In this document: piece after piece, positions 1,373 to 63,700 of the stretch
Numbering within the stretch: position 1 is the first letter of the stretch
How the letters are laid out: every line of letters begins with the position of its first letter
From: Cyanidioschyzon merolae
Taxonomy: Eukaryota
DNA: 64,000 bases
Reading direction: 5' to 3' (one strand)
NCBI GenBank assembly: GCA_000091205.1
Contig: AP006483.2
Program-made: the position numbers and the translations under genes
Notes under the pieces: generated by a model
The model's input: only the letters and a program-made list of their open reading frames with translations
What the model was told of the DNA's origin: nothing
Databases searched by the model: none

Positions 1373-1445
1373 CAGTGGTGCGGCATCGACGTCGTCGGTC
1401 GCATTATGGTGCGGATGTCCCGAATATGATCTTGAGTACCGCATT

Positions 1446-2492
1446 CGCGGTAGTAGCGAATCGCGGAATATCAGTATCGTTCCTGCAACCATTGCCCAGC
1501 AAATCCTTCCCAGTGTACCAGTACGGCGCTGTCGCCTTGGTGCAATGCTGAACACCACCGTACCCGTGCCAGGCTCCAGGCGGGAATCCAATGCCGTCTA
1601 TCCCGGGGTACGGATTCATTGGCATCGAAAGCCTTGCACATCCCAGCACAATGCCAATAACGTGTACCAAACAATCACCTTAGACGCCCGCTCGAGACAC
1701 AGCCGCTGGACGCCCCGAATGCCCCAGACTCTTCTTCCGAATGGTGATCGAGGTGTCCAGGTCTCGGTTCAGAGCGAAAACACTGGCCGGCACGGCGGCT
1801 ACTGGCATCACACCCTAGCAAGCATCTCACCAGGTCGAGTCCGTCGGTACATGACACTCGATCAGCTTACCGTACACCACAGAGTGTACCGGGCTCCGTT
1901 CTATCCGCATCTTGTCAGCCTGATTCAACGAGAACTCATGCTCGTAATGCAGGTATGTCGCCCTGGAGGCATCCACGGGTGTCTAACAAGAATCAGTCGC
2001 TGCACTTATCGTCCGGTCTCGTCCACGAGACGCGAATGGAGGCCACGCGCACTGCAACCCGTGCACCGTCACAGGCTACGACTCACAGAGGCGTCTTGCT
2101 AGTCACTTGGCTTCGTGCCGCTCACGGAATAAGTTCGTGAATGCACGCTCCTCGCTGCCGTACACGAGACGCAGTCTAGGACTCCAGCACTCTATCATGT
2201 ACGCCTGTCCAGGGATCGTCCGCAGGAGCCTGCGGGACGCTGAGGCACGCGCTGAAGCGCGGAATCCCTCGCATCAGTCTTCGTGTTTTTCGGTGGCATT
2301 CCGGTGAGCGGACAGCGCCTACATCAGGCGCGCTCCACACGGACTCGGTTACTCTTCTGGGTTTCGACTCTCGTTAGAAACGCTTTGGAGCTTGCCTCGA
2401 GTGTGCTGCAATCATTAGCATCGCTACTCGACGCGCCACTGTATTCGGGATCAGCTGGGCAACGTCGTTCGACGTGTTGCCAGCGTACTGCA
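1446..2492. repeat. Copy 1 of a ~1.04-kb dispersed direct repeat (LTR-like or segmental duplication)
   Basis: Near-identical to 7275..8323 (7 aa differences over ~215 codons, ~98-99% nt identity). Identity begins at cgcgg...tagcgaatcgcggaatatcagtatcg and ends at ...ccagcgtactgcatc. No recognisable coding content. Confidence 0.85.
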
Positions 2493-4477
2493 TCTCCTGT
2501 CGTGAACGTTGGCTGCAGGGTCGCAACAGATCTCGATCAAAGTATTCCAGATACATGTGAGCAGCTGGTAGCTCTGGTCCTTCAATTCCGAAAAGCAATT
2601 GCGTGATAGAGGGCGGCATGCCAAGAGAAGCTGGGCAAGCCATCCTCGAATGACAATTTCCACGATTCCCAATGACGTGCGGAATCTCACGTTTTGGAGT
2701 ATCATCCCGGTTCATGTATCGAAGCATGGAGTTCTTGACAACGATTTGAGACTGGTGCTTGCGCACCCGCATGTCGCCGTTAGCGTCATTCCCCGTTGTT
2801 TTTTCGAGATCAGCCTTGTCTCCGTTGTGCGATGGTTTTCTGCTCTTTTCTCGTCTCCGCCTGCTCCTCACTTACTTGGCCAGGCAGCGTGGATGTGGTC
2901 GCTGGACTCTACACCCGACCTGGTTCCTCGCGATTCAGGTAGGCTCGATGGACAGCTGGGCTGATGCGTGCCCTCTGTATATACGTATGAATCTACTATT
3001 CATCAAATACCTTTTTGTCACCGTCTCCGTCGCGAGCAAGCCCAAAGACAGATGCGCATCATGCCGCTTCCCCGCAAGCCCGAGCAGCGGAGCGAGCAAG
3101 CGAGCGAGCGGTCCAAGACTGATCAAGGCAGAGGTCGGCTTGTCGGAGAACGGCTTCCCCATGGGTTTCGTTCCCACGAATGCGAACGACTGGTCCATTG
3201 ATCAGTGAACGTCAAAATGGCGTCACATAACAGCGGAGATGCTATCGACTTGATTGAAACAGGGATAACACGCTGGCTCGAAAAGCAGCTCATCACGAAT
3301 CTCAGCGATGTACTCCACGAGCGCGTTTGTGTGATGAACAGCGACACTGTCTTACAGCGGGACTCAGACGTATAGCGAGCAGCCGCCCCAGAATGTGCAT
3401 CGATGAGCGATGTGGTGTTGAGCGACTCTATCTGTCCAGGGATGTATAGACGAAGACGCGATTGACTCGCTGCTCGGGGATGCTGATGTCGATGCGCTCA
3501 CCTGCCCCTTCTCCACGAACCGTTGTGTGCTCAGTTTTGAGTACACGGATACAGGTCTCATCTCTCTCTGAAATGGACGTCCATCGAGTGAGACGAACAC
3601 CGGCCGTCGACTGGAAAACGCATGCGCGTTTCACTACGAACTCACTCACGTGATGCTCAACAAACGACAGTCTCTCAGGGAAGCACGTCCTTCTCTTTCC
3701 GCAAACGTGTCCCTCTATCACACGTTTGAACGAACGATACGGAAACGTTCATACGCTGGCTCCTTTGGAATTATTTCATGGATAACGGATGGAGTGAAAT
3801 TGATTTACGACAGGACAGTCACGCGTATACAGTTTGGTGCGTTCTGTTTGCGATGCCCGACATTCAACCCAGGGAGTTCGAGACGGGCGCTTCATCCACC
3901 ACCTGCTGACCGTAGAATGACTAACTTGCATCCGCAAGACAATTTTTAGCATCAGCAGCAGTGACAGCATAGAGTTTTTTCTGGCCTTTCCCCAATTCAC
4001 AGGATCCATTAGTTGCGTAGCATACCGTCGAGGAAAAAACAATAACGTCATATAGGGTGTACCGGTATCCACGGACCAGCATTCACTGCTCTGAACATAA
4101 CGCTTTGGACGGGCAGCATTCGTCATGCTAGCGTCCGTCTCACCTTAGATTCCAGCGATAAGCTTTGGCGTTCGTTCCGCGGACTGGAGCCGCTTTCTTC
4201 ACCATGACACCTTTCGGTAAACGCGAACTATTCGACGGGGCCAGTTACTCCGTTCCGCTGCGATATCAGAAAAAAGCAACACGCTCTACAGCGCGCAGGA
4301 TAGTACCTGGCGTCGACAAATCAAGACCTCGAAGCACGCGCACTCGCCACGAAGAGCCAGCAACCTTGATTTATATGGACTGAACAGTACAACGGCACAG
4401 CAAAGCGTGAACGTACCTCGAGCTGTACCCGATGAAGACTACTGCCTAACCGTACGAACCTCTGTAGTTTTTCCGTC

Positions 4478-5060
4478 GCCGCGCTGCGCTCTAACGAAAG
4501 CACCTGTGGACGCGTTTACACTCATTCAGCGTATGAGGTTCCAGAAGCACCGAACACAAACCCCAAATAAGCACCCCTGGCTAGCTCCGCATACTTCTGC
4601 GCTATTCCCGTGCGTACACTGCGCTTTGGGAAGCACCGGTGGACGCGTTTACACTCATCCAGCGTATGGGGTTCCAGAAGCACCGCACTCAAAACCAAAA
4701 ATAAGCACCCCTGGCTAGCTCCGCATCCTTCTGCGCTATTCCCGTGCGTACACTGCGTTTAGAGAAGCACCGGTGGACGCGTTTACACTCATCCAGCGTA
4801 TGGGGTTCCAGAAGCACCGAACACAAAACCAAAAATAAGCACCCCTGCCTAGCTCCGCATACTTCTGCGCTATTCTCGTATGTATACTGCGCTTTGGGAA
4901 GCACCGGTGGACGCGTTTACACTCATCCAGCGTATGGGGTTCCAGAAGCACCGAACACAAAACCAAAAATAAGCAACCCTGGCTAGCTCCGCATCCTTCT
5001 GCGCTATTCCCGTGCGTACACTGCGTTTAGAGAAGCACCGGTGGACGCGTTTACACTCAT
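4478..5060. repeat. Tandem array, 134-bp unit x ~4.3 copies
   Basis: The gtggacgcgtttacactcat motif recurs at 4506, 4639, 4773, 4907 and 5041 (period 133-134 bp) with a few substitutions per unit. Confidence 0.85.
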
Positions 5061-6230: not shown

Positions 6231-7274
6231 ACGACTGCGGTTTTTGTCGGGCGTGGGTGCATACTGAGCTAGTGCGCAGGACAGCGTGCCGGCATGACGC
6301 TGCTTCCAAACTCGACGCTTGTCTCGTATAGTCGAAGATGCTGATCCGAACACTGGGCGTCCTATGGCTCCAATACGGGAACCAGATCGATTCGAATGCA
6401 CACGAAGGTGCTGCTGTGTGCACCAGAAGTTTCCCTCCTGCCAGCATGGGAAACGAGGATATGCTATTTAGCCTGATCATCGCGCAGAAGACATGCAGGG
6501 AGCATCACGCTCGACCGCAGATACCCAACTCCTACAGACAGACCGAACCAGGAAACAGTATGTGATTGCTGCTTCTTGGCACATGCAAGCGACGATGAGC
6601 ACGATAGCGCGACACGGGTCTTGGATTCTTTGGCACAGTGTGTGTCTCGCCAAGCTGTGTATCAGGCATTGGCAAAGCAGCAGTCACGCCAAAACCTGTG
6701 TCCCGAGTCACACTCTTGCGGCAGGTCGTGCTCGCGTAAACGGTTTCAGCTCTAACACGTTTCCGAAGTTGGAATCGTGGCAGATACGCATACTTGCAAA
6801 AACTTTCATCCATTGCGTCGCGCCTTGGTAAAGTAACGTAGCGTTGCTTTCGGTCCGAAAAAGCGCCGAGACGATGCCGTCGTCAAGACTCATACATCAT
6901 TCCAGAATATGATGCAGCGAGCGTGACTTGCCTCATTGCGCTGTGGATGGGTCATCAGTTAGCGCTGATCCACGTTCGGATGGAACCTAGAGAGGGCGCG
7001 TCGCGAGCGCAGCGCAGCCTGGGCGCCAGAGCCGCTGTCCAACACAAGGAGCGTGCAGCCTCGCTTGTATTGTCTCCTGAGAGATCTGCGATATGCGCAG
7101 CTCGCACGGCTCAACGATACAAGGCGCAAATATTAAGAGGAAAGAGCGAGCAGGTACAAAGCCCGTATCCGACAGCTACGGATTGTAGAGCGAAAAGATG
7201 GGATTCAAAAGGAAATTAAAAAAGAGAGATGTGTCGTTATAGAAAATATTCCGCAACCACGCCTCCATGCCTAT

Positions 7275-8323
7275 ACGCGGGAATAGCGAATCGCGGAATA
7301 TCAGTATCGTTCCTGCAACCATTGCCCAGCAAATCCTTCCCAGTGTACCAGTACGGCGCTGTCGCCTTGGTGCAATGCTGAACACCACCGTACCCGTGCC
7401 AGGCTCCAGGCGGAAATCCAATGCCGTCTATCCCGGGGTACGGATTCATTGGCATCGAAAGCCTTGCGCATCCCAGCACAATGCCAATAACGTGTACCAA
7501 ACAATCACTTTAGACGCCCGCTCGAGACACAGCCGCTGGACGCCCCGAATGCCCCAGACTCTTCTTCCGAATGGTGATCGAGGTGTCCAGGTCTCGGTTC
7601 AGAGCGAAAACACTGGCCGGCACGGCGGCTACTGGCATCACACCCTAGCAAGCATCTCACCAGGTCGAGTCCGTCGGTACATGACACTCGATCAGCTTAC
7701 CGTACACCACAGAGTGTACCGGGCTCCGTTCTATCCGCATCTTGTCAGCCTGATTCAACGAGCACTCATGCTCGTAATGCAGGTATGTCGCCCTGGAGGC
7801 ATCCACGGGGGTCTAACAAGAATCAGTCGCTGCACTTATCGTCCGTTCTCGTCCACGGGACGCGAATGGAGGCCACGCGCACTGCAACCCGTGCACCGTC
7901 ACAGGCTACCACTCACAGAGGCGTCTTGCTAGTCATTTGGCTTCGTGCCGCTCACGGAATAAGTTCGTGAATGCACGCTCCTCGCTGCCGTACACGAGAC
8001 GCAGTCTAGGACTCCAGCACTCTATCATGTACGCCTGTCCAGGGATCGTCCGCAGGAGCCTGCGGGACGCTGACGCACGCGCTGAAGCGCGGAATCCCTC
8101 GCATCAGTCTTCGTGTTTTTCGGTGGCATTCCGGTGAGCGGACAGCGCCTACATCAGGCGCGCTCCACACGGACTCGGTTACTCTTCTGGGTTTCGACTC
8201 TCGTTAGAAACGCTTTGGAGCTTGCCTCGAGTGTGCTGCAATCATTAGCATCGCAACTCGACGCGCCACTGTATTCGGGATCAGCTGGGCAACGTCGTTC
8301 GACGTGTTGCCAGCGTACTGCAT
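7275..8323. repeat. Copy 2 of the ~1.04-kb direct repeat
   Basis: See copy 1. The two copies have the same orientation and lie 5.8 kb apart. A purine-rich tract (7190-7235) sits ~40 bp upstream. Confidence 0.85.
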
Positions 8324-17957: not shown

Positions 17958-19628
17958 TTAGAAGCGAGCCGTCTTGGGTCGATGGTTGCGCAAATCATCC
18001 GACGGGGTGCCGTCGATGTCCGTCTCGGACTTGGCACCGCGCGGGACTCGTTCCAGGGTAGCGACCAATGCCTGCGCGACTTTCTCTTGCCGTGCACGAA
18101 CGTACTTATCGCTGACCTGCATCCGTTTGTAATAGCCATCGATTTCAACGGACTTGAGGCCTGCCGCAGAACAGATCGCTCGCTTCACTCGAGCTGCAAA
18201 CTCGGCGGCCGATTCATTCGGTTGTTGTTTCATGGGCTCCAGGAAGTAGACGTCAGCAACTAACGCCCAACTCGTCCAGATACGAAAGAGATGCCAAAGA
18301 AACGACTCCTCCATGGAGTTCCAGAACGCGTCCGCGAAAAGCTTGTTGTACTTGATTGCAACCGGGTAAATGACGGCATCCTTCATCTCGAAGGCGCCCT
18401 TCTTAAACATTAAGCAGTATTCATTGTTCACACAGGTACCCTCGGGAAAAATGAGCAGTGGTGGAACATTCGGCTTCTGAAGGTGTTCTTCGATCCGTTT
18501 CCGTACAAGCTGTCGATCCTGGAGGTCGTCGCGCGAGAACCAGATGCATCCAAGACACTCGAGGACGTGCTTTTGGAGCAAGCCCACGATACCACCGTGT
18601 GCCTGGCCAACGGTCGCAAACGGACACAGTTGCTGGAGCACAATCAAATCGATCAGCGACGAGTGATTCGCAACGTAAATCGCATGCGGTCGCATTCGTG
18701 GACGAGTTCCATGATACGCGATAACGCCGCTCATAGACATGATCCAGCACGCTGAGTACAAGACAATAAGCTTTCTTTCCAGCTCGTGACGACGTTCTGG
18801 ATTTCTTCGATAGAGCCATTTGGTTATGGAGAACGCGAGCGCGAAAAGCACGCTCCCACTCACGAGGCAGAGTACGCGCAAAGGCAGTAGGATGCCGTAT
18901 CGGATAACGACACCGAATACCCATGGTAAGAAAAGGTACACGTTCCAGTTCCACGCAGGGACAGGGGTCCGTTTGAAGCACCGCGAAAACTCATCTTCAA
19001 CCACATCCTCCATAGCTTCCGTCGCGAATGTCAGCGGAGCAAAGAGAAGCGGTAACCCGCTGACAGGCATTGCCTCTGTCCCGAGCACCTCCATGAGCGC
19101 CCGCTCGAAGCGCTCTTGCACGCGTTCGCGATCAGAGGAGGCATCCAGGTCACCACGTACCATTCCAGCAAGGTCGGCCCAGGATTCGCTTGCTCTCTGG
19201 AGCGCCAGTTTCGTGCGAGTCTGTCCTCGGGTAAGCAGACCCTCGCGCGGACCCTGGCTCCTTGCCGACGGCGACGCCTGCGCAGCATTCATCAAGACCG
19301 TAGATAACTCCTGGGTCACGGCCAGCGGCGAAGCGCGCTCCACTTGTTTTCCTTGACCTCGCATTGTCTGGGTGATGTCGTAGGCAGCGGGCCGCTCTTG
19401 AGGCGCCTCGATCAGAGGGGTTGGAGGTCTCTCCCTACTCAGTGGCGGTGCCGTTGCAGGTGACGTGTTCCGATCTCCGTCATCGAACACCTTATCTTGC
19501 GCTTTCGCGAAAGAACCAGTTCTCTTTTCAGCGTCGAGGTACTGGGCCACACGCGCGTCCACCGGAACGGGCTCTTCCCCAGGGTTCTCGCCCAGAGGCG
19601 GCTGTGCTTTGGCGGTGGTCGCTGCCAT
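17958..19628 (-). CDS. Glycerol-3-phosphate acyltransferase, GPAT3/GPAT4 (AGPAT6/9) type, LPLAT family
   Basis: 556-aa ORF with an ATG at 19628. Acyltransferase motif I is NHSSLIDLIV (HX4D) and motif III is LLIFPEGTCVNNEYCLMFKKGAFE (near-identical to the GPAT3/4 motif). Hydrophobic segments lie upstream. Confidence 0.8.
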   Translation of the reverse strand: MAATTAKAQPPLGENPGEEPVPVDARVAQYLDAEKRTGSFAKAQDKVFDDGDRNTSPATAPPLSRERPPTPLIEAPQERPAAYDITQTMRGQGKQVERASPLAVTQELSTVLMNAAQASPSARSQGPREGLLTRGQTRTKLALQRASESWADLAGMVRGDLDASSDRERVQERFERALMEVLGTEAMPVSGLPLLFAPLTFATEAMEDVVEDEFSRCFKRTPVPAWNWNVYLFLPWVFGVVIRYGILLPLRVLCLVSGSVLFALAFSITKWLYRRNPERRHELERKLIVLYSACWIMSMSGVIAYHGTRPRMRPHAIYVANHSSLIDLIVLQQLCPFATVGQAHGGIVGLLQKHVLECLGCIWFSRDDLQDRQLVRKRIEEHLQKPNVPPLLIFPEGTCVNNEYCLMFKKGAFEMKDAVIYPVAIKYNKLFADAFWNSMEESFLWHLFRIWTSWALVADVYFLEPMKQQPNESAAEFAARVKRAICSAAGLKSVEIDGYYKRMQVSDKYVRARQEKVAQALVATLERVPRGAKSETDIDGTPSDDLRNHRPKTARF

Positions 19629-20228
19629 GCCTCACCGACACCGTTCAGAACCAGGCGGAAGCTGCAGAAGCTGGATTCGCCACCGAAAACCCGACGGACG
19701 AAAGACTTGAGTCACGTCGGACCCGTCTCTGGAATAGAGAAAAAAGGTTTTGGCCAGTTTATCGTGACGTTGTCGAGCAGGCGTGCGCTGCGCCTCAGGG
19801 CGTGTGCTCCAGAGGCAACGCCAGTGCCGATTGGTGCCGGCGCACCGTATACCGCACTCAACTGAAGCGTGTTCCACACAAAGGTGTGTGGAAGTCGATG
19901 CTTTTTTCGTTGTATGTAGCAGACGCTATCGCAGGTCGTTCATTAGACGTGATAAAAAAATCTAAGGGAATGGTATGGGGGTGCTATGCGGAAATCCCGG
20001 AAGGCTTTCATTGCCGGGTTGAACAAAACTGGAAAGCCGTGCCGAGCATAGAGGAACGGGAAAGGACGATGCAGCAGAAGCAATCGCGCGAGGCCGGACG
20101 TTGAAAAGGATCTCGAAAGACGACAGTACGACGGGATGGTGGTGAAAGCCTCTTTTCTTGGCCATAGCTAGTATCCCTACAAAAAAAAGTTACGAGAAAC
20201 GATCAGAAACCTTGTCGAGTCGTATTCA

Positions 20229-20783
20229 ATGAGTATTATTGAGGCTTCTTCGGGACTGGTGCATATGGCGAAGGAGATGTACGACAATGTGACGGACATT
20301 CGAAGAGTCAAGATTCCGGACGAGTTTTTCGACAAGACCTTTATTCGTCACCTTGTGCTTGGTACAGGGGATGCGCGGGGTGAAAATGAGCGGGTGCACG
20401 TCCTCCACGAAAACTTTGCAGAATTCCGCTTCGAGGGTAATCGATACAGGGGTGACGCGGATGCTTACATATACGGGGCGATGAAGTATCTCACGAATCT
20501 GAAGAACCATTTGACAATGAACGTCGAACGTTTCATGATACGCCCCGTGTTTGCACTTTACGCGGGCATCTCTCGCAAAGGAATATGGGCAATTATCAAT
20601 GGCTTTACAAACAATCCCCAGCATGAAGATGAGGTTGAATTCGTCGACAAGAAGGCGTCACACAGGAGAAGGAATGAAGCTTCTGTAATCCGTGCGCCTA
20701 CTAAAGAGCACCGCGCAGAATTGGGACTGGCGAATCCAGCAGAAAAGATATCAGAGTTGAAAACAGATACGGAAAGATACTAA
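20229..20783 (+). CDS. Fanzor/TnpB-like nuclease, segment 1 (N-terminal, putative WED/REC-like region)
   Basis: ATG at 20229, 184 codons, ends at TAA 20781-20783. The next segment is in a different frame that opens at 20855. The join could be a short intron (for example GTAATC at 20685 to AAG at 20866) or a frameshift. Confidence 0.45.
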   Translation: MSIIEASSGLVHMAKEMYDNVTDIRRVKIPDEFFDKTFIRHLVLGTGDARGENERVHVLHENFAEFRFEGNRYRGDADAYIYGAMKYLTNLKNHLTMNVERFMIRPVFALYAGISRKGIWAIINGFTNNPQHEDEVEFVDKKASHRRRNEASVIRAPTKEHRAELGLANPAEKISELKTDTERY

Positions 20784-20866
20784 TATCTCATCCTGCGGTA
20801 TTTCGTGTTTTTGGACCGCGAGCTCGAACGCAAGGCGGAGATGATGCTAAGTGAGGAAAAAATGAA

Positions 20867-21646
20867 GTGCGGGAGAGACGGAAGGCTTTCCGAATGGGGG
20901 AGCGCTCCAACATCGTTCCGTTGTGCAACATCAAGTCACATTTTGTGCGTATTGATTCCGGCGTCCTTTACGGCATCATGAAGGGGATCTGTCCGGGGTT
21001 CGATGTAAGGAAGACAGAGTTCTCCGGTGAAACCCAGGAGACGTACTGGAAGAATATCTTCGATATCAAACGTCTCAAAGTGAGCAAGAAAAAGAAATTC
21101 ACTGGGATGATAGAAACTGATGGACTAGCCATATGTGTACACTATCGGCGGTTCAAGACAGATCGGCATGTTCCGTCTTCGGCTTTGCCCGAGACGAAGC
21201 ATGAAGATGAGAAGGAGGAGGATCCTGCGATGCAGAACGTGCAGAAGAACGACTTTTTCGTTGGCGCGGACCCCGGGAACACGAACATCGTAACCATCGC
21301 AGTACGCAGGCGTGCGGAAGATGGTACTGATGGTACCTTGCGTCGGAAAGAAATGCGTCTATTGAGATTCTCTAGAGCGAGATACGATCGAGAATGGGGA
21401 ATCATGAATGCGAGGAGGAAAATCGAGACTTGGAATGCAGGAGTGAAAGAGCACCTGGAAGCTATGAGCGAAGTGACGAGCCGCGAAGCAGACTTGAAAG
21501 CTTTTCGGGAGTCCATGGAAGTTCGCGTTGCGCATTGGGAGGCGCTGTGGGCGGCGGAGTATACAAAGCCCCGGTGGGCTCGTTTGCGAATGAATTTGTA
21601 TTTTGGGAAACAGCGTGCATTCGCGAATTTTTTTTCAATGAGTTGA
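20867..21646 (+). CDS. Fanzor/TnpB-like nuclease, segment 2 (RuvC-I)
   Basis: Contains [21 protein letters not shown] (RuvC-I Asp). It overlaps segment 3 in another frame. A T8 homopolymer at 21628..21635 is a candidate frameshift point. Confidence 0.55.
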
Positions 21647-22130
21647 GCGCCTTGAAGGAGGATGAAAGTCAGAGGCTCCTAGTAGCATACGGAGCAGGGC
21701 GATGGAAGATCCAAAAAGAAACTATGCCAGCTCCAACGACGAGAACATTCAAAGAGTGCGCAAGGCGCTTCGTTACGATACCTGTAGATGAGTTCCGAAT
21801 GTCCTACACACACCATGAACTGGGATGTACACTTCAGAACGTCGAGATGGAAAAGTGCCAGCGGAGCCCTGAGGAGGATATAGCAAAATATGGACCGCTG
21901 GCGGAAGAGCAAATGGAAAGGAGAGCGAAAGCTCGAGGACTACTTGCATTAGTAAGTACAACCAACGATGGCAAGAAACGGATGGAGTTTGTGAATCGAG
22001 ACTTGAACGCCGCGATCAATATACGGGGATGGGCGGTGATGGAGCATAAACCTCCAGACAGGACAAGAGTGAACTTTATCGGACAATCACTTCAAGTCGA
22101 ACTATATGAGAAAAAGTTGAAACCAGTAGT
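21394..22130 (+). CDS. Fanzor/TnpB-like nuclease, segment 3 (RuvC-II, zinc finger, RuvC-III); ancestral stop at 22128-22130
   Basis: Contains LLVAYGAGRW ... FVTIPVDEFRMSYTHHELGCTLQNVEMEKCQ ... KKRMEFVNRDLNAAINIRGWAV. Comparison with copy B (aaaaagccaagccgatag) shows a 1-nt insertion in A (aaaaagttgaaaccagtag). This shifts the ancestral TAG out of frame, so the track ORF reads through to 22365. Confidence 0.6.
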
Positions 22131-23055
22131 CGTTGGCCGGTCCAAAAAACTGGGAGGCGTCTGCACGTCACTTGGAGACTTCTTGTCTAGGGCAGGCTTC
22201 TCGCCACTATTGTACCACTGGCAGCAGCGTTTGTCTTTTGAAAGGCGTTTGTTGTTGGAGGTGGGCGTGAACGAAGGCCACTGTGAAAAGTCTGCGTCAA
22301 GTCGCTTTTTCTTTCGTACTCCCAGGCCTTCTGCAGCTGAGCAAACTACTGAACCGAGCGCTTAGGGCGACTCGGGTTTCTGTGAGAGGCAGCCCGCGGT
22401 TGGTATCATGGTGCGGCACACGCCTCGGCGAGGTTCGGGTGTGGGCACTGCAGCCCCAGCGGTTGCGTCCACATCCAGAGCAAAGCACGGACCTGTTGCT
22501 GCAACAGCGGTGCCACAGCAGGCATCCACACCCCCGTGCGATGTCTCTGGAGAGGACCATGCGTCCCAGCCAGGCGCCTCAGCGGAGACGCTTGAGGTGC
22601 CCAGCGACTTTGGGTGCGACGACTTGCGCCCTGCAGCAAGCGCAACCCGGGATTCGGGCAAGCACCTGGAGCCGGACGCCGAACGGTTTGGCTCTTTGGA
22701 ACAGGTGCGTCAGGAAGCCGAAGCAGGAACGGAACTGACGCGCTCTGCACTGGGTCCTCGCCAAGTGCGGAAGCGAGTGGTGCAGCGTCGGTCCGCGACA
22801 GGCGCTGCAGAGCGAGCCCCAGTGAGTACGCACCCGCCGTCTGATGCGGCTCCAAGGAGCGGCACCTCTGTCGGAGGAACCAACACAGGACAGAGCGGGC
22901 AGGATGCTTGGCACCCAGCGGGTGCTTCTGGACCGGATGCCCCGGAAACCCCAGCTGCGTTCATCACCAGTGCTGCTGTTCCCGAAAGCACCGGTGCTGA
23001 TCTTCGTTGGACGCCTGCTCCCTCATCGGAGCATCTCACCAGAGGCGCTGTCGTC

Positions 23056-24816
23056 ATGCGTTCGCCACAGGTCGACGGACCGGCCACAGCCGTCATCAAG
23101 CGCTGTCCGAACTGCGGGGGTGATGATCTCGAGTTTGGTAGCAGTTCGGGCCAAACAGCGTGCATGCTCTGCGGACATGTCGTTGAGGAGAACACCGTAG
23201 TCAATGAGCTCCAGTTCGTAGAGGGTGCTGGCGGTCACAGTGCCGTCGTAGGTCAGTTCGTACGCACCGGCAGCAGCGGAGCAGCGTCGCTGGGCGCAGC
23301 CGCTGCAGCCACCGCAGCCGGTGCGTCGCTGCTCTATAACGCATCCACGGCCGGTGTGACGCGTCTCACCATAGGGCATCGGGAGTCGCGGGAACTCACG
23401 TACGCAGCCGGACGCCGGAGAATCGCCACCATCGCTTCGCAGTTACACCTGCCGCCGCGGTTTGTGGATGCAGCGCATCGTTTGTTCACGCTGGCTGTCC
23501 AGCACAATTTCGTGCAGGGCAGGCGTACCCAGACGGTGGCGGCTGCAGCGCTCTACATTGTCTGTCGACGGGAGAAGACGCCGCATCTGCTCATTGACTT
23601 TAGCGATACGCTGCGTATCAATGTGTACGTCCTGGGTCATACTTATCTGAAATTGTGCCGCGTTCTGCATTTGGCATTGCCGATCATTGATCCTTCGTTT
23701 TACATTCACCGGTTTGCAAGTCGGTTAGATCTGGGCGAGAAGCAGAATGCAGTAGCGCAAACCGCACTGCGTCTGATCAGTCGAATGAAGAGGGACTGGA
23801 TCCATACTGGGCGGCGTCCGGCTGGTCTCTGTGGGGCAGCACTGCTCATTGCAGCTCGTATGCACGGCTTCCGTCGCTCGCAGCGTGAAATAGGTGCCGT
23901 CGTTCGTGTCGGTGATATGACCATTCGCCAGCGACTCTGTGAGATCGAAGAGACGCCCACTGGAACGCTCACTGGTCGAGAGCTTGCCGCCGAGTCGGGC
24001 TTGATCGAATCCGTTGCCGAGGAAGACACCACCGAGGCGCCTCTGGCGGCAACCGCGGATACCTCCGCAAACGCAGTGTCACCTGAGGCAGTTGACACAC
24101 TCGACGGCTGCGACCCGCCAGCGTTCCGGCGCCGGCACGCGTTGTCGTCGTCGTCGTCATTGGAGTGGCTCGAGCAGCAACACCACGTCCTGGAACAGAG
24201 CAAGGCAGCTGAACAGGACATTGTCGCGGATACCTCGCTTACCGAGCAGGAGCGAGCTTTTCTGGAAGCCTCCGCCACTGCCGAGGGCGAGCGCGTACCC
24301 GTAACGGTACTGGTGGCACCGGCAACGTCCCACGGTGCAGTCTCGAACTACGTCGGCTCGGTGAGGCGCGAGGCCTCGGGACCCCTGGCCCCGCTTGGCG
24401 CTGCAGCGGATGAGCGTGCCGCAAACCCGGTGACAACGGGCGTTATCGCTGGTACATCTGGTCTGTCGACGCGATCCGGCCCCGAGGGCGGAGCGAATTA
24501 TCGCTGGCTAAGCGACCGAGTCGAAGAGCTCAGCGACCTCGACTCCGAGGAGGAGGCTATGTTCGTGTGCACGCCCGAGGAAACTGCCTTTCGGGAGAAA
24601 ATATGGACGGCGATGAACCAGGAATGGATCGAGCGTGAGGCTGAAATCGCTCGTTGGGAACGCGACGATCCCGAGCGGTACCAGCGTCTCATGCGCAAAC
24701 GAGAGTACATGCGTGGTTTCTACAAATCCAACGCCAGCAACAGCGCCGCTGCTGAAGCGCCCTGGAGTCACAGCGCCACAGCAACAGCAGCAGCAGCAGC
24801 AGTTGCAACAACAACG

Positions 24817-24861
<45 letters not shown>

Positions 24862-25269
24862 CCTGGTGGCGAGCGTCCCAGTACAGTTGCACCTGCCGCA
24901 GTCGAGGCGGTCGTGCGCTCCGTACGCGACGCTGTGCGCAGCGCAGTGACGCACTCGAAGCGTACGAGCAAGAAAATCAACTATGATGCCCTAGAACAGT
25001 ACGACCTTGGCGGCCGTGGCGACTCGATTCCAACAAACGATGCCGAAACAGTCGCAGTCGCAGATGCTGCCGGGCGTCCATCGCAGCCAGCACCGAGTCT
25101 GTTTGACTTTGGTGATCAACCTGCACCCGAGAGACGACCACCGGTTGCGCAGTCGTCGATACCAGCACCAACGCGCGTAGCGAAACGCGTTGTTCGGCAG
25201 CAGCAGCACCATCAACAACAACAACAACGCGCCGCCTCCGCTACCCCTCAACCGACGCACCAGACATGA
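23056..25269 (+). CDS. BRF1: Transcription factor IIIB subunit BRF1 (TFIIB-related factor)
   Basis: Zinc ribbon CPNCGGDDLEF....CMLCGHVV sits directly after the ATG at 23056. Two cyclin-fold repeats follow (IASQLHLPPRFVDAAHRLFTLAV...; NAVAQTALRLISRMKRDWIHTGRRPAGLCGAALLIAARMHGF). A long C-terminal region carries a poly-Q/A tract. The track ORF opens at 22408 (216 codons upstream), but BRF1 proteins start at the zinc ribbon. Confidence 0.75.
24781..24862. repeat. (CAG/GCA)n trinucleotide tract encoding poly-Q/poly-A inside BRF1
   Basis: gcaacagcagcagcagcagcagttgcaacaacaacgacagcagcagcagcagcagcagcagcagcagcagcagcagcagc. Confidence 0.9.
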
Positions 25270-33719: not shown

Positions 33720-33995
33720 ATCGCCAGCGTCGCCGCCGCCAACGCCATCGCTGCAGGCAGCCGCAAGGCATTGAGATTGTGATCGTTTCCTGGAGCGCGC
33801 CTGCGTTGCTGCAGTGCAGATATTTCTGATGCGCCGCCGCCGCCGCCAACGCCATCGCTGCAGGCAGCCGCAAGGCATTGAGATTGTGATCGTTTCCTGG
33901 AGCGCGCCTGCGTTGCTGCAGTGCAGATATTTCTGATGCGTCGTCGCCGCCGCCAACGCCATCGCTGCAGGCAGCCGCCAATCCGCCTTCAATCG
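33720..33995. repeat. Minisatellite, 107-bp unit x ~2.6
   Basis: gccatcgctgcaggcagccgcaaggcattgagattgtgatcgtttcctggagcgcgcctgcgttgctgcagtgcagatatttctgatg recurs at 33744, 33851 and 33958. Confidence 0.85.
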
Positions 33996-35526
33996 ATTTT
34001 TCGTTGGATATAAGGTTTCCATCGTGGACCACGGATGCCGGATGGCGAGTTGACTACGGGCATTCGCGAAAGCGTCCATGATTCTTTACTCTGCGTCCAT
34101 TTTCCATGATCCGTACTTCCTCCTGAGTGTACGAATCGTTTTGGTGATTCCATCGTGCGCTGAGCGTCTGCTCTGCTGCACCCGCAATGGCGCCTATATC
34201 CTAGTGCGGATACAGCTCGAAGACAGGACGAGATGGTCATATGAATGAGGGCGCCAGCTCGAGGCATGATTCATTCAATACGGGATCGGAATTCACCATC
34301 TTTCTGGGAGCCTGCGTACTGCGCAGACAGACCAAGTGCGTGCGGCAGTGCGAAGCGATACGCTAGGAGCAAACGCTACCAGCGCGACACCGAAATGCAC
34401 TCCAGCCACTCCTAGTCGCAGAACAAAATGCGCTATGAACAAACTGTTCAGATGTTGCAACAGGACCGGGTACTACGGGATACCTTGCTTCAGTTTTAAG
34501 CGCCCGGTGCCGTACTTGGCGATTATGAGCGTCTTCCAGGCGATCTCGCCGACAAGTACACTGTGCGCTGTACACGCAAGATCACGCTGTTCCATGCGAT
34601 AGCGCTGCTGTGGAACGCGATGTCGTCGATGATGAAACATCTACCAGAATGAGAATCCAGATCAGAAAAGCATTCGAGAGATTTTTGGCTGAGTGTATGT
34701 TCCATTCGTGCGAAGCGGTGACGCTCTCTCTATAAGAAGCGATCACTGCACCGACTCCAGTCTGAATGCAAGACCCTCTCCCTTGCAATCGGAAAGACGG
34801 GGAATGCCCTGCCATTCAATGATGCTGCTGGTGCTGCTCCTATTGAATGCCGCTCCGTCGATGGTTTTACAAAGACACACGAGGATTCGGCTGCGGAACG
34901 GGTTGATTATTCGGCGCAACAAGTTTCATAAACTACCGGCATACGCTAATGAAAAAGCCTTCAAGGCATGATGAAAATTTTCTACTCGTATATCCAGCAG
35001 AACGTATCGTGGCGCCCACGAGTTTCCTTCCAACAGAAAGATTCAAGGCTCGAAGCATGCGTGATTCGGACACGCTGACTGTAAGGAAAGGCAACGAATG
35101 GAGGCCTGTACTTATACATTGGATGGTGATATCCGTCATTATATGAAACCCCTTGTTCGAGAGCGCCACGAGTCATCTTGACGCGGGTGCCGTCACGCAT
35201 TCCAACGGCAATACGTCAACGTATCCACTCCAAAAGACCACCGAGTATGCCGAGACTGCGCATAAATCCGTATGTTCTTGTTGCTGAGCTTTGAATGGCT
35301 AAATAGCGCATCTGAAAAGCGTTCTGAAAAATTCTGAAAGGCACGAACAGAGCAAGCACTTCTACATCCATTCTAACCTGACACGAGCGTAGCGCCCAGA
35401 CGCCAGCCAGCGTTGTCAAGTTCCACGATAATCCGGCTCGTTCACAGGCGTTATCGGGCGCCATCATGGGACCAAGGTGGGCCGGTCCCGTTGCGCTCTT
35501 TTCTCGACAGTGGCCCCAGCTTCGAT

Positions 35527-37529: not shown

Positions 37530-37849
37530 GATTTTCGTTTTTCTTGACAACACAAATATCCGTTCGTGAATGAATTAGGGAAAAGCGTTTCGCGGTATCA
37601 TAGCGGGAGATGCTACCGCTCACTCAAGAACAGTGCCCCAGCGCATCCCAAATTAGATCCTCCGCTTGGTGCACCGACACCGCACACGCCGCGTTGGAGG
37701 GTAATCGCAGGCGGCACTGTTCATTGTTGTTCAACTTAATTGTGTTCCGCCCCCAGGTGATTGATATCAAATGGCATTTCGCGGCGCATAGCGGATGCGC
37801 TCATCCTTCGCTCATTCTCAAACCAACGAATTCCAAGCTACAGGTACAG

Positions 37850-38323
37850 ACATGGACGTCAGAGATCCCGCGGAGCCGTCATCGCCGCGTGCCAGAGAAA
37901 TCCGTGCAAAATACGCTTTTCATCGACTATCGAGCGTCGAAGAGGAAGAAGAACAAGAAGAGGTGAGGTAGGCGAGAAAAGATGCTTGCCCGACGGGACG
38001 ATAACGAGACTGTATCGGCCCAGAGGGCACGTGTTCGAGGACTTGTCGCGTCGGTGAGTTCAGGCAGCGGCAATGCACGCAATGAGTTCGTGAACCGGGA
38101 CTTTAGCGCCGCTATGCAGAGTAGACGATTTGCGGTGCTGAAGATGAGATTCGAGGAGCTGACGCCATCGAACTTTATGGGGCAGCCTCTCTGGCTCGAA
38201 GTGTGCCTGGATAAAAAGCCAAGCCGATAGCTAGCGGCCGGTCGAAAAATGCCAGGAGGCGTCTTTGAGCGGGAGTGCACATACACTCTATGGTTGAGGG
38301 ACATTTTTTTGCTTCATTGACAT
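37850..38323 (+). mobile_element. Fanzor-family 3'-terminal remnant, copy B (Tc1-like junction plus RuvC-III end plus right-end tail)
   Basis: Encodes ...SGSGNARNEFVNRDFSAAMQ... (RuvC-III remnant) ending at TAG 38228-38230. Then ggaggcgtct ... ttcattgacatg (38323), a right end shared with copy D. Upstream ~37700-37900 is homologous at DNA level to the transposase-tail region of copy D (gatcccgcggagccgtcatcgcc). Confidence 0.6.
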
Positions 38324-41300
38324 GTGGAGCAATCGTGTTCACATGACCGGTGATTCGCTGCAGACGGGTTCAGGAAACGACGGGGCAGCAGGAGAAATGC
38401 ATCGCCAATCGGATGCGGTGGATCGCGGCACCCTTCTGGTTGACAGACCGTTTACGGAAATCAGGGATGCCCTGTTGTACACCATGGGTAAACGCAGTGC
38501 CGTGATCGGTGGAACACCTGTGCGAGGACGCATTTTTGCTATTTATGGATGGCTTTTTTTGCGGATAGTCAATAAAAGGAAGGTATTCTATTGGTTGGAA
38601 AAAGTTCGCTGAAAGACTTGATGCCGTCACTGCGAGTCTGCAAAAAAAGGTCTTTTTTGTCCAAGTCAGTTCTTCTACGCTCAGCAAGCGGATGAAGCGC
38701 ATTTCTCGTTGTCCATATTGTAAAGGCCATGCACCCTAGACGGAAGTTGTTAAACCGCATCAATACGACTGTCTTCGGGTATATGCATTCTACTCCATAG
38801 ATTGTTTGACGAATGCTGATACAGAAGCCAAAGATTCTGAACTTTCCGAAACAATGACACGAATGGTGAAGAAGAAACGGGCGCGGAGAAAGAAAAAAGC
38901 GCGCTTCTCTGGGAGATCGTCGGGCGTTGAATGATACACGGCAGGTTCTATCATGTAACGTGACCGCCTATAGCAGGAGCGACGCGTATTCGTCTCGTTC
39001 GATGGGACATCATTCGGGAGAAATCGCAGTCTTCTATGTAGATGCTTAAAGAGAGGCAATCTGCTGCTCGCTAATATGAGAGAAGCGAGCGTGACGAAAC
39101 CATGACCCCGAACGGCAATCATACCGAGTGGGCGCCCAGCATTCTCTCAACGGACAGAGTTGTTGAACGCCTCCGGCTTTGTTGAAGCGCTCTTCATGGC
39201 ATCTCCTTCCAGCACTCTAAAGTCCTGCTATAAAAGAAAACCACATTCCATCAAGAAGAAACGGTGAAAGCGTATGCAGCTGAAACTGGCTTTGATCTGC
39301 TCTTCGTGTCAGCGTATTAGACTTGCTTCCGTCTAGTCAAAGACGTCTCCTCTGTTGCCAAACGCCATTTCTATGTCCAGCGCACGATAGACGGCTCGTT
39401 CGCATCCGTGACACCAAAGTTCTGTGGCAAGTCGCTCGCTGTTACCTTCACCAGTCCTGAACTACTGTATTGCCCCCGAGCCCGTACACGACATCGAGCG
39501 TAGAGGTGCGCTTCGGTCTGTGCGCGTGATCGCGACGCAGAACGGAACAAAAAACCCTGCTGGAATACGCAGTGCATTCGTAGAGGAGGCGCGCTTCAGT
39601 GCAATCGATCATCCAGATCGTCTGAGAATCTAAGAATCAAAGAGATGCGGAGTGTAGCGATCACAAGCGTGACATCCCACCATGTAAAGAACACAGCGAC
39701 AAACGAGATGAGGTAGAAACCATCCGACAAAGGAGAGGCAGATCCCGCAGAAAAACAACGAGGACGAGGAGGGACAGCGATGAAAACCTGTCGGAGCAAA
39801 ATAGTCAGTTTGAAACCACTGTCAAGGTTTCGCTCCGAAAAATGCAGCGTGGGGATTCTGCAAAACAAACCGAGATGCAGAGCGCCATGATGGATAGTAT
39901 ATAGCTTCGTACTCGATCAAGGCTCGCCTAGCTTGCCTCACCATGAAGCGTCATCTCGAGGAACGATTTCTAGACGTTCCGGATGCAGGGCTCCCATCTG
40001 TCCATATTCCCCTGGAAGTTCTCGATCAGACCTTCGTGCGCTAACACAACTGGTGCTCGGCACAGAAGCGGCAGTACGGCCGGGATCGGAGGATCAGCGA
40101 TTTCGGCACGCGCTTCTCAGAATACCATGACGAGTTGCCATGCCGTATCGGCGATGGGCACAATCCACTGCGCAGTTGCCGAAAATCATCAAAGCAATCT
40201 CGAAAACCGTATGCGAGATAATCAAGAGGGTTTCATAGAAAGCACGCAGTGGGCGTTGCAGCCTCACCAGACTGACCCAAACATGAGGAACTTCATGAAA
40301 GCGGCTCTCCAGTTCGGAGATTACACGGGCGTCAGAATGGCTCACGCGAAGGAGCTTTGGCGGCAGTGCATGATACTGCGCTTTGGATCACCATCGGTTT
40401 CGGTTGTGCGGAGGCAAGAAGCTTGGATTCGCCAATTTGTTCAGCGAGCTGGAAAAGGAAACGATCGAGAAAACACGGCGCGAGCTCGTGGTAGCCTATG
40501 GAGCTGGACCTGCGGTACCAGGCGCGCGCCGCACCCCTGGCCCTTCGACGACAGCAAGCAGCAAGTGCAGGCATCGATTGTAACCGATTCTCATCCTTGG
40601 ATTCAGAAGGATCGAACCGCATCACGAGCACGGTCACACGCTGGAACAGGTAGAGAAAATGAACATGAAACGGATCCAGATGCACGAAACGGTAAACACT
40701 AAGATGGCTGAATATCGATTGGTGAGGCAATCGAGATTTCCTGGCTTCGTATGGTGTGATTCCACCAGCAGCGGAGCGCGCGAGCTCGCCATGCACAACC
40801 TCGTGAACGCCTCGATCCACGTCCGGAAATGTCGTGTGTTTCCGGAGCGCCCAGCAGCATTGCATCGAGCGAACTTTCAAGGAAATCACTGAGTATTCAG
40901 TGTGGACGTAATGCTGAACCGCTGAAGAGTCTCGATGAAAAACCAGCGGCCGTCAGAGGTGCATTGGATGCGCATCTAGAGCAATGCAATGGACTGGTAC
41001 GCGTTCGTAATGCAGAAAGGAATGGATTCCCGATATATACAACGAGAAAGGTTCTCTCGGACAATTGGTGATCGCTCACGGTAGTCCATTACTCGAAATT
41101 CCTCTGTGGCTGCTTTCATTGTCTGCAGAGAGGGATCGCATCGCACGTAAGATCAAGAAATTATAGACGAAGCATCCGGGGCCTACTGCCAGCGAATCTT
41201 CATATTCAAATGAAAGTCCATGGAATGGTGGCAGCGGCACTGGCGGTGTTAGATTTATGGAGACTGGAGGACATAAGGCGCAACCATGAAGGCTCCCTCG

Positions 41301-43289: not shown

Positions 43290-43836
43290 GCGCTGCGCCC
43301 CCGACGCAATTCTCAAAATCGCTGTGCGGAATTCGGAGCGCAGTGCCCCCGATGCACAGCCCTGAATCCCTGGGGGAATTCTCAAAATCGCTGTGCGGAA
43401 TTCGGAGCGCTGTGCCCCCGATGCACAGCCCTGAATCACTGGGGGGGAATTCTCAAAATCGCTGTGCGGAATTCGGAGCGCTGCGAACCCGATGCACCGC
43501 CCTGAATCACTGGGGGGAATTCTCAAAATCGCTGTGCGGAATTCGGAGCGCTGCGAACCCGATGCACAGCCCTGAATCCCTGGGGGGAATTCTCAAAATC
43601 GCTGTGCGGAATTCGGAGCGCTGCGAACCCGATGCACAGCCCTGAATCCCTGGGGGAATTCTCAAAATCGCTGTGCGGAATTCGGAGCGCTGTGCCCCCG
43701 ATGCACAGCCCTGAATCCCTGGGGGGAATTCTCAAAATCGCTGTGCGGAATTCGGAGCGCTGCGAACCCGATGCACAGCCCTGAATCCCTGGGGGGAATT
43801 CTCAAAATCGCTGTGCGGAATTCGGAGCGCTGTGAA
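43290..43836. repeat. Satellite array, ~62-bp unit x ~9, EcoRI site (gaattc) twice per unit
   Basis: gaattctcaaaatcgctgtgcggaattcggagcgctg(tg/cg)(cccc/aacc)cgatgcacagccctgaatc(c/a)ctgggggg is repeated head-to-tail with point variants. Confidence 0.9.
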
Positions 43837-44089
43837 TGGTATCCCTCGTAGAGATGCTATGGATGCTATTCTTAAGAGTGATGGTATGAATGTTGACGAT
43901 GATTCTGCTTCCCGTGTCGCTCGCAAACGTTCGTGCGATTGCAGCAGCGCGTTCCATGTGCACAGCTACGTATCCGGTTGGAGATTGTGCGAGACATTGC
44001 AGGAGTCTCACGTGCGTGCATGTCGTCAGGCTTGATGACGAATCGTTTACCATGGAACATTGCTGCATCTTACGGACGTTCAATGCAAT

Positions 44090-63469: not shown

Positions 63470-63700
63470 TTGATCGATCCATCGATCCATTTTCTCATCG
63501 GCAAAACGTTTCCCTAGGCCAGCGTTCTCCGATTATGCGCATTTTTTTTCTTTCTTTTTTTGTGTTATTTTTTCAGTGCGCGGTATCGATCCATCGATCC
63601 AAAGATCCTCCGGCAAAACGTTTCCCTAGGCCAGCGTTCTCCGATTATGCGCATTTTTCTTTTCTTTCTTTTTTTGTGTTATTTTTTCAGTGCGCGGTGA
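63470..63700. repeat. Tandem duplication, ~117-bp unit x 2, upstream of the coiled-coil gene
   Basis: atcgatccatcgatcca...ggcaaaacgtttccctaggccagcgttctccgattatgcgcattttt(t)cttt(t)ctttctttttttgtgttattttttcagtgcgcggt occurs twice in tandem. Confidence 0.85.

Follow-up and report, generated by a model that had tools for sequence, protein, structure and literature searches.

The closest described system is CMe-1A of Cyanidioschyzon merolae, a transposon whose protein, CMe-1, was classed as Fanzor1 in the 2013 paper that named Fanzor (PMC3627910). About 150 copies of CMe-1A are described; the consensus measures 3169 bp and encodes a protein of 734 aa in a single exon (Bao & Jurka 2013, Mobile DNA 4:12, PMC3627910; Repbase). 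The family table lists CMe-1 with one exon, some copies of CMe-1A are intact, and its 5' 635 bp are common to TE-N2_CMe (PMC3627910). The element has neither terminal inverted repeats nor a transposase of its own, its sole gene being that of the Fanzor1 protein. A C4 zinc finger located between a [TS][TS] motif and RD belongs to the Fanzor signature (PMC3627910). The CMe-1A consensus and CMe-1 protein sequences used here were taken from the supplement of that paper.

Solved Fanzor1 enzymes include PpFz1 (9cf0-9cf3), SpuFz1 (8gkh and 9ceu-9cez) and GtFz1 (9cer-9cet) (Saito et al. 2023; Xu et al. 2024, PMC11423790), and the catalytic residues of SpuFz1 are D383, E541 and D606 (PMC11423790). The CMe-1 family shares with them the D-E-D RuvC positions, a transposon-borne gene and, according to the predicted structure, the overall fold, whereas a CMe-1 member is only 13-18% identical to them in structural alignments. 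The family also differs by a TNB domain without the C4 zinc ribbon and by a variable 25-aa tandem repeat before RuvC-I, and the copy described here is moreover non-coding. The RuvC fold and the motif order are likewise shared with Cas12 and with bacterial TnpB of IS200/IS605 and IS607 elements (e.g., ISDra2 TnpB, 8h1j). Unlike these bacterial systems, the CMe-1A consensus carries a single ORF with no TnpA partner, resides in a eukaryotic nucleus and encodes a protein roughly twice the size of TnpB, and the CMe-1 family gives no significant match to OrfB_IS605 (PF01385) or OrfB_Zn_ribbon (PF07282).

A CMe-1A relic between two housekeeping genes

The relic is located on chromosome 1 of C. merolae strain 10D, in a 64,000-nt stretch hereafter called the window, all positions being those of this stretch. 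It lies between an acyltransferase gene (GPAT/LPAAT, PF01553), the start codon of which stands at 19628, and BRF1 (PF08271, PF00382, PF07741). Both neighbors, already named in the original prediction, are divergently oriented with the relic between them.

The whole relic spans 19831..22258 (+) and corresponds to consensus positions ~768-3169 followed by a semi-conserved, T/G-rich tail of ~11 nt. Indeed, a family profile aligns its positions 768-3166 with 19831-22246 (nhmmer, E=0), and the published consensus, from 955 to 3169, aligns to 20021-22247 with 85.4% identity over 2233 aligned positions (blastn). The 3' terminus is complete, as the last consensus base, 3169, falls at 22247. Coverage by family copies drops steeply past ~22250, and the 3' limit of the relic is either 22247, the consensus end, or 22258 when the 11-nt tail (TTTGTTGTTGG, plus strand) is included; the element thus seems ~11 nt longer than its published 3' end. 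At the other extremity, consensus positions 1 to ~767 found no match at the locus by blastn, local alignment or the nhmmer profile. The relic is 5'-truncated, being devoid of the TE-N2_CMe block (consensus 1-635) and of the initial ~125-150 bp of its core. The TE-N2 block is also missing from most metagenome copies. In other respects, the copy resembles CMe-1A closely: same organism, a consensus match to the exact 3' end, no terminal inverted repeats and a copy-to-consensus divergence near the published ~80%. Inactivation by stops and frameshifts sets it apart from the consensus.

Because the coding remnant begins upstream of 20229, the element starts ~200 bp from the GPAT ATG, as the profile match reaching 19831 also indicates, and not 600 bp away as first proposed; the distance to the BRF1 ATG is 150 bp. 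Only two accession numbers, for the two large ORFs in between, separate those of the flanking proteins, BAM78739 and BAM78742, so the genome annotation probably holds no gene model at the relic. The same 64 kb also house several TE-N2_CMe copies, with TE-N2-like sequence at 48384-49081 and 34023-34478, and no fewer than five other relics derived from Fanzor. For annotation, masking of 19831-22258 as a relic of CMe-1A is advisable, and that of the other Fanzor and TE-N2_CMe relics of the window likewise.

Probable neutral drift and the 3' end

The locus is very probably a fixed, 5'-truncated and pseudogenised copy of the Fanzor1 transposon CMe-1A, inserted between GPAT/LPAAT and BRF1 and drifting neutrally. 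The insertion would predate the divergence of the sampled Cyanidioschyzon strains, and the copy would have drifted neutrally since then. The element differs by 1.3-1.85% from its orthologous copies, versus 0.45-0.85% for the flanking coding sequences.

An alternative is that the relic was exapted, the protein being dead while its DNA serves as promoter or spacer for GPAT and BRF1 or as a donor of omega-RNA acting in trans. In its favor, the insertion is fixed throughout the sampled strains, lies close to both start codons and keeps a complete 3' terminus. However, the evolutionary rate of the relic is two to four times that of the neighboring coding sequences and about equal to that of the unique intergenic segment 19629-19830, in contrast to the 149 bp directly upstream of BRF1, which are 100% conserved. 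The 3' end counts against this alternative as well. The 3' untranslated part of the element, 22191..22258 (+), holds the position of a subterminal hairpin (~22228-22247) that most family copies have, ~11 nt before their apparent end, and that is degraded here (MFE -4.0, z -0.4), and the 3' 199 nt of the window copy fold no better than shuffled sequences (z=0.03). Exaptation is therefore improbable.

An omega-RNA structure was also looked for at the family level. The CMe-1A consensus has a folding z-score of -1.79. No consensus RNA structure was obtained with RNAalifold from 49 family 3' ends, and the ribosum-scored alifold structure displays no covariation above shuffles (89.4% of cells paired vs 89.1%). 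A crude helix enumeration returned noise only, and conservation of the family 3' UTR does not exceed that of third codon positions. The window gave no match in an Rfam scan, and its tRNA scan was empty.

The carrier class of CMe-1A was also considered. Helitrons are recognized by a 3' subterminal hairpin ~10-12 nt from the end, a 5'-TC, a 3'-CTRR and insertion between A and T. The CMe-1A family recalls them by its heterogeneous 5' ends and by a hairpin located ~11 nt before the apparent end, but neither a CTRR terminus nor a T after the end is seen, and there is no RepHel gene. The terminal signatures agree imperfectly with a Helitron or IS605-like carrier, and, as in the original paper, CMe-1A is not assigned to a carrier class here.

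Lesions of the coding remnant

The consensus ATG falls at ~19973 and opens a degenerate N-terminal coding remnant, 19973..20102 (+), delineated by local alignment to consensus 795-1056 and three-frame translation. The phase is lost there, with at least one further frameshift within 19973-20102; indels comprise +6 at 20070-75 and +1 at 20103. Next comes a frame-0 remnant of the N-terminal half, 20103..20864 (+), covering consensus residues ~46-294 (75.5% identity to CMe-1 residues 46-294, tblastn). It is interrupted by two in-frame stops, a TAG at 20169-20171 (+) and a TAA at 20781-20783 (+), the latter replacing a sense codon within conserved coding sequence. An A6 run at 20857..20862 (+), 1 nt shorter than the A7 of the consensus, takes the reading from frame 0 to frame 2. 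The frame-2 remnant, 20861..21634 (+), covers residues ~294-552 (77.7% identity, tblastn) and includes a single 25-aa repeat unit at ~21190-21268 (+) as well as the RuvC-I motif. A T8 run at 21628..21635 (+), representing a net gain of 2 nt over the CTTTTT of the consensus, then moves the frame from 2 to 1, and the frame-1 remnant, 21631..22155 (+), covers residues ~550-723 (82.3% identity, tblastn), with the RuvC-II Glu codon, a TNB region devoid of zinc ligands and the RuvC-III Asp codon. Finally, an A6 run at 22144..22149 (+) carries a strain-specific 1-nt deletion, orthologous copies having seven A. As a consequence, the ancestral stop TAG at 22188-22190 is bypassed and reading continues to 22365.

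Altogether, the lesions of the copy amount to two in-frame stops plus four or more frameshifts (~20103, +1; 20857-20862, -1; 21628-21635, +2; 22144-22149, -1). The three ORFs initially described, 20229-20783, 20867-21646 and 21394-22365, do lie in three different frames, and the T8 run is present where it had been reported; the splitting over three frames therefore stands, with more breaks than had been counted. The loss of the ancestral stop had been ascribed to a 1-nt insertion, and it results in fact from a deletion relative to both the consensus and the orthologous copies. The window copy displays no uninterrupted ORF and no other conserved ORF. The decay is not extreme, since none of the three catalytic codons is damaged and long stretches of ORF remain. 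Judged from its reading frames, the copy is a pseudogene and would be unable to make protein.

These surviving features could suggest a functional Fanzor gene in which the frame breaks are introns, as had been envisaged for 20685-20866 and for the 21394-21646 overlap, or programmed frameshifts. However, the window is colinear with the single-exon consensus throughout the supposed introns, with no extra sequence, and the intron alternative is rejected on this ground. The breaks themselves consist of a TAA in place of a sense codon and of 1-2-nt length changes in A or T runs, and the TAG at 20169 and the degenerate N-terminus lie further upstream. C. merolae is reported to have ~27 introns genome-wide (Matsuzaki et al. 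2004), which also counts against spliced breaks. Together with the single exon given for CMe-1 in the family table (PMC3627910), these observations make a functional gene at this locus very unlikely.

It could also be argued that the organism has an intact gene, the frameshifts having been introduced into homopolymer runs of the reference genome by faulty sequencing or assembly, since three of the four shifts fall in A6 or T8 runs. Yet the 20857 A-run deletion and the T8 run are both identical in the orthologous contigs L085-L088, which come from independent metagenome assemblies, and the same lengths of both runs are found in L001-L002; only the 22144 A-run differs between strains. Both nonsense codons are substitutions and not length errors, and they accompany the 20857 and 21628 frameshifts in orthologous metagenome contigs (98.2-99% identity). 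The recurrence of these lesions in independently assembled contigs establishes that they are real, and an artefact of the reference is extremely improbable.

Fanzor1 identity and features of the CMe-1 clade

The three RuvC motifs are all found on the plus strand at the positions originally assigned to them: RuvC-I at 21260-21301 (Asp codon 21269-21271), RuvC-II (VDEFRMSYTHHELGC) at 21784-21828 (Glu codon 21790-21792) and RuvC-III (KRMEFVNRDLNAAINI) at 21976-22023 (Asp codon 22000-22002). The EKC element is visible in the sequence at 21850-21858 (+). The catalytic triad had been described as intact, which holds for the codons at 21269, 21790 and 22000. Four colinear pieces of the window copy align to the CMe-1 Fanzor1 consensus, with amino-acid identities of 75-82%, and the homologues collected number 142 proteins of 58-86% identity. 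The 85.4% consensus match, the profile match with E=0 and these 142 homologues go far beyond chance.

Used to search the PDB, a diverse family profile (A3) that includes the members P0043, P0057 and P0077 matched PpFz1 (9cf0, E=3.8e-21), SpuFz1 (8gkh, 1.3e-13) and GtFz1 (9cer, 2e-5). The D, E and D of the family align to D777, E935 and D1000 of 8gkh_P, which are D383, E541 and D606 of SpuFz1 with a constant offset of 394, so they occupy the RuvC catalytic positions. Asp206 and Glu378 (P0043 numbering) do not vary among 67 clade members, in which Asp447 reaches a conservation of at least 90%. An AlphaFold (AF2) model was built for P0043 with alignment A5 instead of the broken window copy (pLDDT 81.5, pTM 0.75); a 10-sequence alignment had given an uninformative model (pLDDT 34). 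When the P0043 model was compared with the PDB by Foldseek, Fanzor1 structures took the first seven places (E 1e-11 to 2e-6); weaker matches to Cas12o and Cas12i (from E=5e-5) and to TnpB 8h1j (E=1.6e-3) came next.

Profile searching was less informative with general models. No Pfam match, including PF01385 and PF07282, was obtained for the three window ORFs and five full-length homologues; the set scanned did not contain PF26935/DUF8286, which is assigned to family proteins in precomputed tables. Hence, the kinship anticipated from profiles is borne out by the diverse family profile against solved Fanzor1 enzymes and not by OrfB_IS605 or OrfB_Zn_ribbon. The absence of Pfam matches and the failure of a narrow family profile to find anything in the PDB except a chance Angiogenin match could be held to mean that the three motifs are RuvC-like by accident and that no TnpB/Fanzor kinship exists, a reading with a negligible chance of being right and refuted by the diverse profile, the structure prediction and the published classification, which all designate Fanzor1. 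By sequence comparison and predicted fold, the locus is a eukaryotic TnpB homologue of the Fanzor1 kind with a D-E-D RuvC architecture, and the Fanzor-like assignment of the original prediction is upheld. This identification is correct and not new, as the Fanzor1 family and its presence in C. merolae have been known since 2013 (PMC3627910). The novelty and possible activity implied at first are thereby withdrawn, the window copy being unable to make the protein.

A Cys/His zinc finger had also been placed after the RuvC-II Glu. From the catalytic Glu to RD, the 67 clade members contain 1.2 Cys on average, and none of them reaches four Cys or has two CxxC. PF07282 was found neither in the window ORFs nor in family proteins, and distant relatives give only sub-threshold matches (E=0.002-0.09). 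The zinc finger is thus unsupported, and the TNB region of the CMe-1 clade, as deduced from these alignments, lacks the C4 zinc ribbon of canonical Fanzor and TnpB. Of ten distant relatives, a single one has a name, a protein from the green alga Tetrabaena socialis annotated as hypothetical.

The CMe-1 family is represented by more than 500 related loci. It has modular, heterogeneous 5' ends and propagated deletion derivatives, and the copy number of the 25-aa tandem repeat in the linker before RuvC-I varies among its members. The core of the element is almost always preceded by ...AT; PpFz1, the closest solved relative, uses an ATN TAM.

Family copies display a coding-type conservation pattern, with 0.895, 0.910 and 0.844 at codon positions 1, 2 and 3, respectively. 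Near-complete open frames occur in hot-spring metagenome contigs, one of which (L011) reaches 778 codons, counted from stop to stop with the start codon unchecked. The CMe-1 clade might tentatively be regarded as a still-functional, zinc-ribbon-less branch of Fanzor1 in thermoacidophilic red algae. By homology with the solved Fanzor1 enzymes, intact members of ~734 aa would be expected to act as these do: the protein would bind a putative omega-RNA encoded by the 3' end of the transposon, recognize a short target-adjacent motif and cut DNA at its D-E-D RuvC site.

Reading the raw sequence correctly recognized a Fanzor1 remnant, the copy at this locus being an unannotated and neutrally decaying pseudogene. 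The family observations, namely the missing zinc ribbon, the variable repeat, the 3' hairpin, the modular 5' ends and the deletion derivatives, are not properties of the window locus and may interest those mining for thermostable editors or classifying CMe-1A. Should intact members prove to be active RNA-guided nucleases, they would represent editors adapted by nature to heat and acid, with a cysteine-poor TNB domain and a copy-number-variable 25-aa repeat before RuvC-I as unusual features.

A copy of the published CMe-1A family

The three ORFs of the Fanzor-like locus (20229-20783, 20867-21646 and 21394-22365) and every motif quoted in the original prediction exist in the window, all on the plus strand: the RuvC-I motif carrying the DPG Asp (21260-21301), the RuvC-II motif VDEFRMSYTHHELGC (21784-21828), the RuvC-III motif KRMEFVNRDLNAAINI (21976-22023) and a T8 run (21628-21635). 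Used as a protein query, the third ORF retrieved 142 homologues at 58-86% identity, all metagenomic. The paper defining Fanzor (Bao & Jurka 2013, PMC3627910) records a single Fanzor1 family for C. merolae, named CMe-1A. Its roughly 150 copies each have ~80% identity to a consensus of ~3 kb; the element has no terminal inverted repeats, its target-site duplications are given as undetermined, and its 5' 635 bp recur in a second repeat, TE-N2_CMe. The supplement of the paper gives the sequences of both the 3169-bp element and its 734-aa protein (CMe-1), encoded by one exon. The window sequence 20021-22247 aligns to this consensus at 85.4% identity, from position 955 to the very last base, and the CMe-1 consensus protein matches it in four colinear segments (73-82% identity). 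With a profile of 174 family hits, the match reaches 19831 (hmm 768-3166, E=0), and a local alignment gives evidence of homology as far upstream as about 19858. Thus, the consensus, protein and profile alignments identify the locus as one copy of CMe-1A, and the novelty first implied for it is not upheld.

A Pfam-A set that does not include PF26935 returned no matches for the window ORFs or the full-length homologues, and the PDB contained no match to a narrow family profile. An exhaustive HMMER search found 1456 relatives among 1.84 billion representatives. A diverse profile of 66 sequences, three of them CMe-1 family proteins, matches in the PDB the Fanzor1 enzymes of Parasitella (PpFz1, E=3.8e-21), Spizellomyces (SpuFz1, E=1.3e-13) and Guillardia (GtFz1, E=2e-5). 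In the MBP-fusion chain 8gkh_P, the counterparts of the family's DPG Asp, DEFRT Glu and NRD Asp are residues 777, 935 and 1000. A constant offset of 394 makes these SpuFz1 D383, E541 and D606, named by Xu et al. 2024 (PMC11423790) as the catalytic residues that coordinate the scissile phosphate. Across 67 clade members, the first Asp and the Glu never vary, and conservation of the second Asp is at least 90%. An AlphaFold model of the family member P0043, built from a deeper alignment (pLDDT 81.5, pTM 0.75), was compared with the PDB by Foldseek: the best seven matches (E 1.3e-11 to 1.6e-6) are all to Fanzor1 structures, and Cas12o, Cas12i and TnpB come next. The identification as a Fanzor-type TnpB homologue therefore stands, because significant profile matches were obtained and the D/E/D triad falls on catalytic positions. 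In precomputed Pfam tables, PF26935 (DUF8286) is assigned to Fanzor1 homologues (P0016, P0037 and others), including proteins on the contigs L002 and L085, and apparently matches part of the CMe-1 Fanzor1 clade.

The predicted Cys/His zinc finger is not borne out. The interval from the catalytic Glu to the RD motif (window 21790-22002) averages 1.2 Cys across the 67 clade members, and in not one of them does it contain four Cys or a pair of CxxC. The sole common Cys column of this interval is LLWC, with Leu or Ala there in CMe-1, and PF07282 is sub-threshold at best, in distant relatives. By sequence, the clade, which includes a Tetrabaena socialis protein, thus lacks the C4 zinc finger that belongs to the Fanzor signature as defined in 2013, whereas its fold and catalytic residues agree with that definition.

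Decay of the copy and its fixation between GPAT and BRF1

The locus is a dead, 5'-truncated copy. Introns, proposed as an alternative cause of the frame breaks, are ruled out by alignment of the window copy with intact homologues and the consensus, which displays simple stops and indels. An in-frame TAG replaces a Lys codon at 20169-20171, and an in-frame TAA at 20781-20783 replaces a Tyr codon within the conserved ERCYRLILRYFVFLDRELERK, after which the same frame resumes. Frameshifts result from a 1-nt deletion in an A run (20857-20862), a net +2 change in the T run (21628-21635) and a 1-nt deletion in another A run (22144-22149), the last of which lets translation pass the ancestral TAG at 22188-22190; this C-terminal lesion had been read as an insertion, the wrong direction. 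All lie on the plus strand, as do the scrambled first ~40 codons (19973-20102), and the copy also carries in-frame length changes of +6, +3 and +3. Everything up to consensus ~767 is absent, comprising the TE-N2 block and the first ~125-150 bp of the core, and the 5' hairpin known from other copies falls in this missing stretch.

Four large ORFs of the window match proteins of C. merolae 10D chromosome 1 exactly. The neighbours were correctly named as GPAT and BRF1. On one side, the minus-strand ORF 17958-19628 is, by exact-sequence look-up, XP_005535025.1 of C. merolae 10D, a 'probable lysophosphatidic acid acyltransferase' carrying PF01553; on the other, the counterpart of ORF 22408-25269 in orthologous contigs has Zn_Ribbon_TF, TFIIB and BRF1 domains. 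The genome annotation appears to hold no gene model at the Fanzor locus, as there is no gap for one in the accession numbering of the annotated genes around it. The Fanzor region has a G+C content of 0.49 vs ~0.59 in the flanks, relative to which it is also strongly purine-skewed. Neither tRNA genes nor Rfam matches were detected in the 64-kb window.

The GPAT-element-BRF1 locus is also found in independently assembled hot-spring metagenome contigs whose GPAT is identical or slightly different, with the element at 98.2-99.0% identity in all of them. Indels among these copies are confined to 19954, 20180 and 22143; both stops and the lengths of the T run and the 20857 A run are common to them, and the 22144 deletion is peculiar to the window's strain. 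Between strains, divergence is 1.3-1.85% for the element, 2.0-2.5% for the unique intergenic sequence 19629-19830 and 0.45-0.85% for the GPAT and BRF1 coding sequences, the picture expected of a relic that is fixed and evolves neutrally. The 149 bp from the element end to the BRF1 start codon (22259-22407) are 100% identical in three diverged strains and probably represent a constrained BRF1 promoter or 5' UTR.

Older relics and repeats in the window

Further family relics within the 64 kb are older than this copy. Two plus-strand internal-deletion derivatives of ~500 bp (37722-38264 and 59041-59536/59588) join consensus ~785-1065 directly to ~2838-3088. Their alignments to each other and to copies in contigs L051, L018 and L033 run through one shared junction at 66-71% identity, so an old non-autonomous derivative seems to have propagated. 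Diverged Fanzor1 pseudogene fragments, with stops and 26-50% amino-acid identity to CMe-1, lie at 43940-45453 and 40394-40886 (plus strand) and at 7564-7809 and 1668-1979 (minus strand). Beside the two minus-strand fragments lie the units of a direct repeat (1443-1742 and 7273-7572), 300 nt long and 98% identical, suggestive of a segmental duplication. Solo plus-strand TE-N2_CMe copies, 72-77% identical to the CMe-1A 5' block with no Fanzor core attached, occur at 48384-49081, 34023-34478 and 45672-45819. Tandem arrays unrelated to the element are located at 43303-43906 (~70-nt period, seven overlapping 185-nt copies), 4498-5060 (~134-nt period, four units), 33728-33941 (a 107-nt unit, twice) and 63499-63685 (a pair spaced 112 nt).

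Architecture and proposed activity of CMe-1A

Directly before the RuvC-I Asp, family members carry a 75-78-bp tandem repeat encoding an acidic, KHEEKKEADPATQEVQENDFVV-like 25-aa unit, disordered in the AlphaFold model and present in 1-5 units per copy (L007, L009, L017, L024, L030 and other loci), with one unit in the window copy (~21190-21268). The core starts with a small hairpin, GCGCTC-GGT-GAGCGC, at consensus ~645 (loci L007-L083), and is joined to at least four unrelated 5' 'heads', namely TE-N2 direct, TE-N2 inverted and two other shared sequences. The head-core junction almost always reads ...AT; the TAM of PpFz1, the closest solved relative, is ATN. Near the 3' end, most copies possess a subterminal hairpin that takes one of two sequence forms at the same position, either CGTTTTTC-TTTT-GAAAGGCG or the 10-bp CGTCGTTCGA-CTT-TCGAACGGCG; it is degraded in the window copy. 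About 11 semi-conserved T/G-rich nt follow it, past the end of the published consensus, and hairpin and tail together correspond to window 22228-22258. Like Bao & Jurka (PMC3627910), the analysis assigns CMe-1A to no class of transposition mechanism.

The search for an omega-RNA at the 3' end of the element did not demonstrate one. RNAalifold gave no consensus structure in 49 3' ends, the covariation of the ribosum-scored structure was not above shuffles, and the omega-RNA search returned no Rfam match. The 3' 199 nt of the window copy fold no better than shuffles (z=0.03), and the consensus 3' end mildly better (z=-1.79). Conservation in the 3' UTR (0.81) is no better than at third codon positions (0.84). 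On the model of Fanzor1 enzymes with known structures, the predicted role of an intact CMe-1 protein is to bind an omega-RNA derived from the 3' end of the element and to cut TAM-flanked DNA that matches the guide. Across the family, codon positions 1, 2 and 3 are conserved at 0.895, 0.910 and 0.844, with the strongest pattern in the RuvC half. This pattern indicates that the CMe-1 protein was under selection while the family spread, in agreement with a remark in the 2013 paper (PMC3627910).
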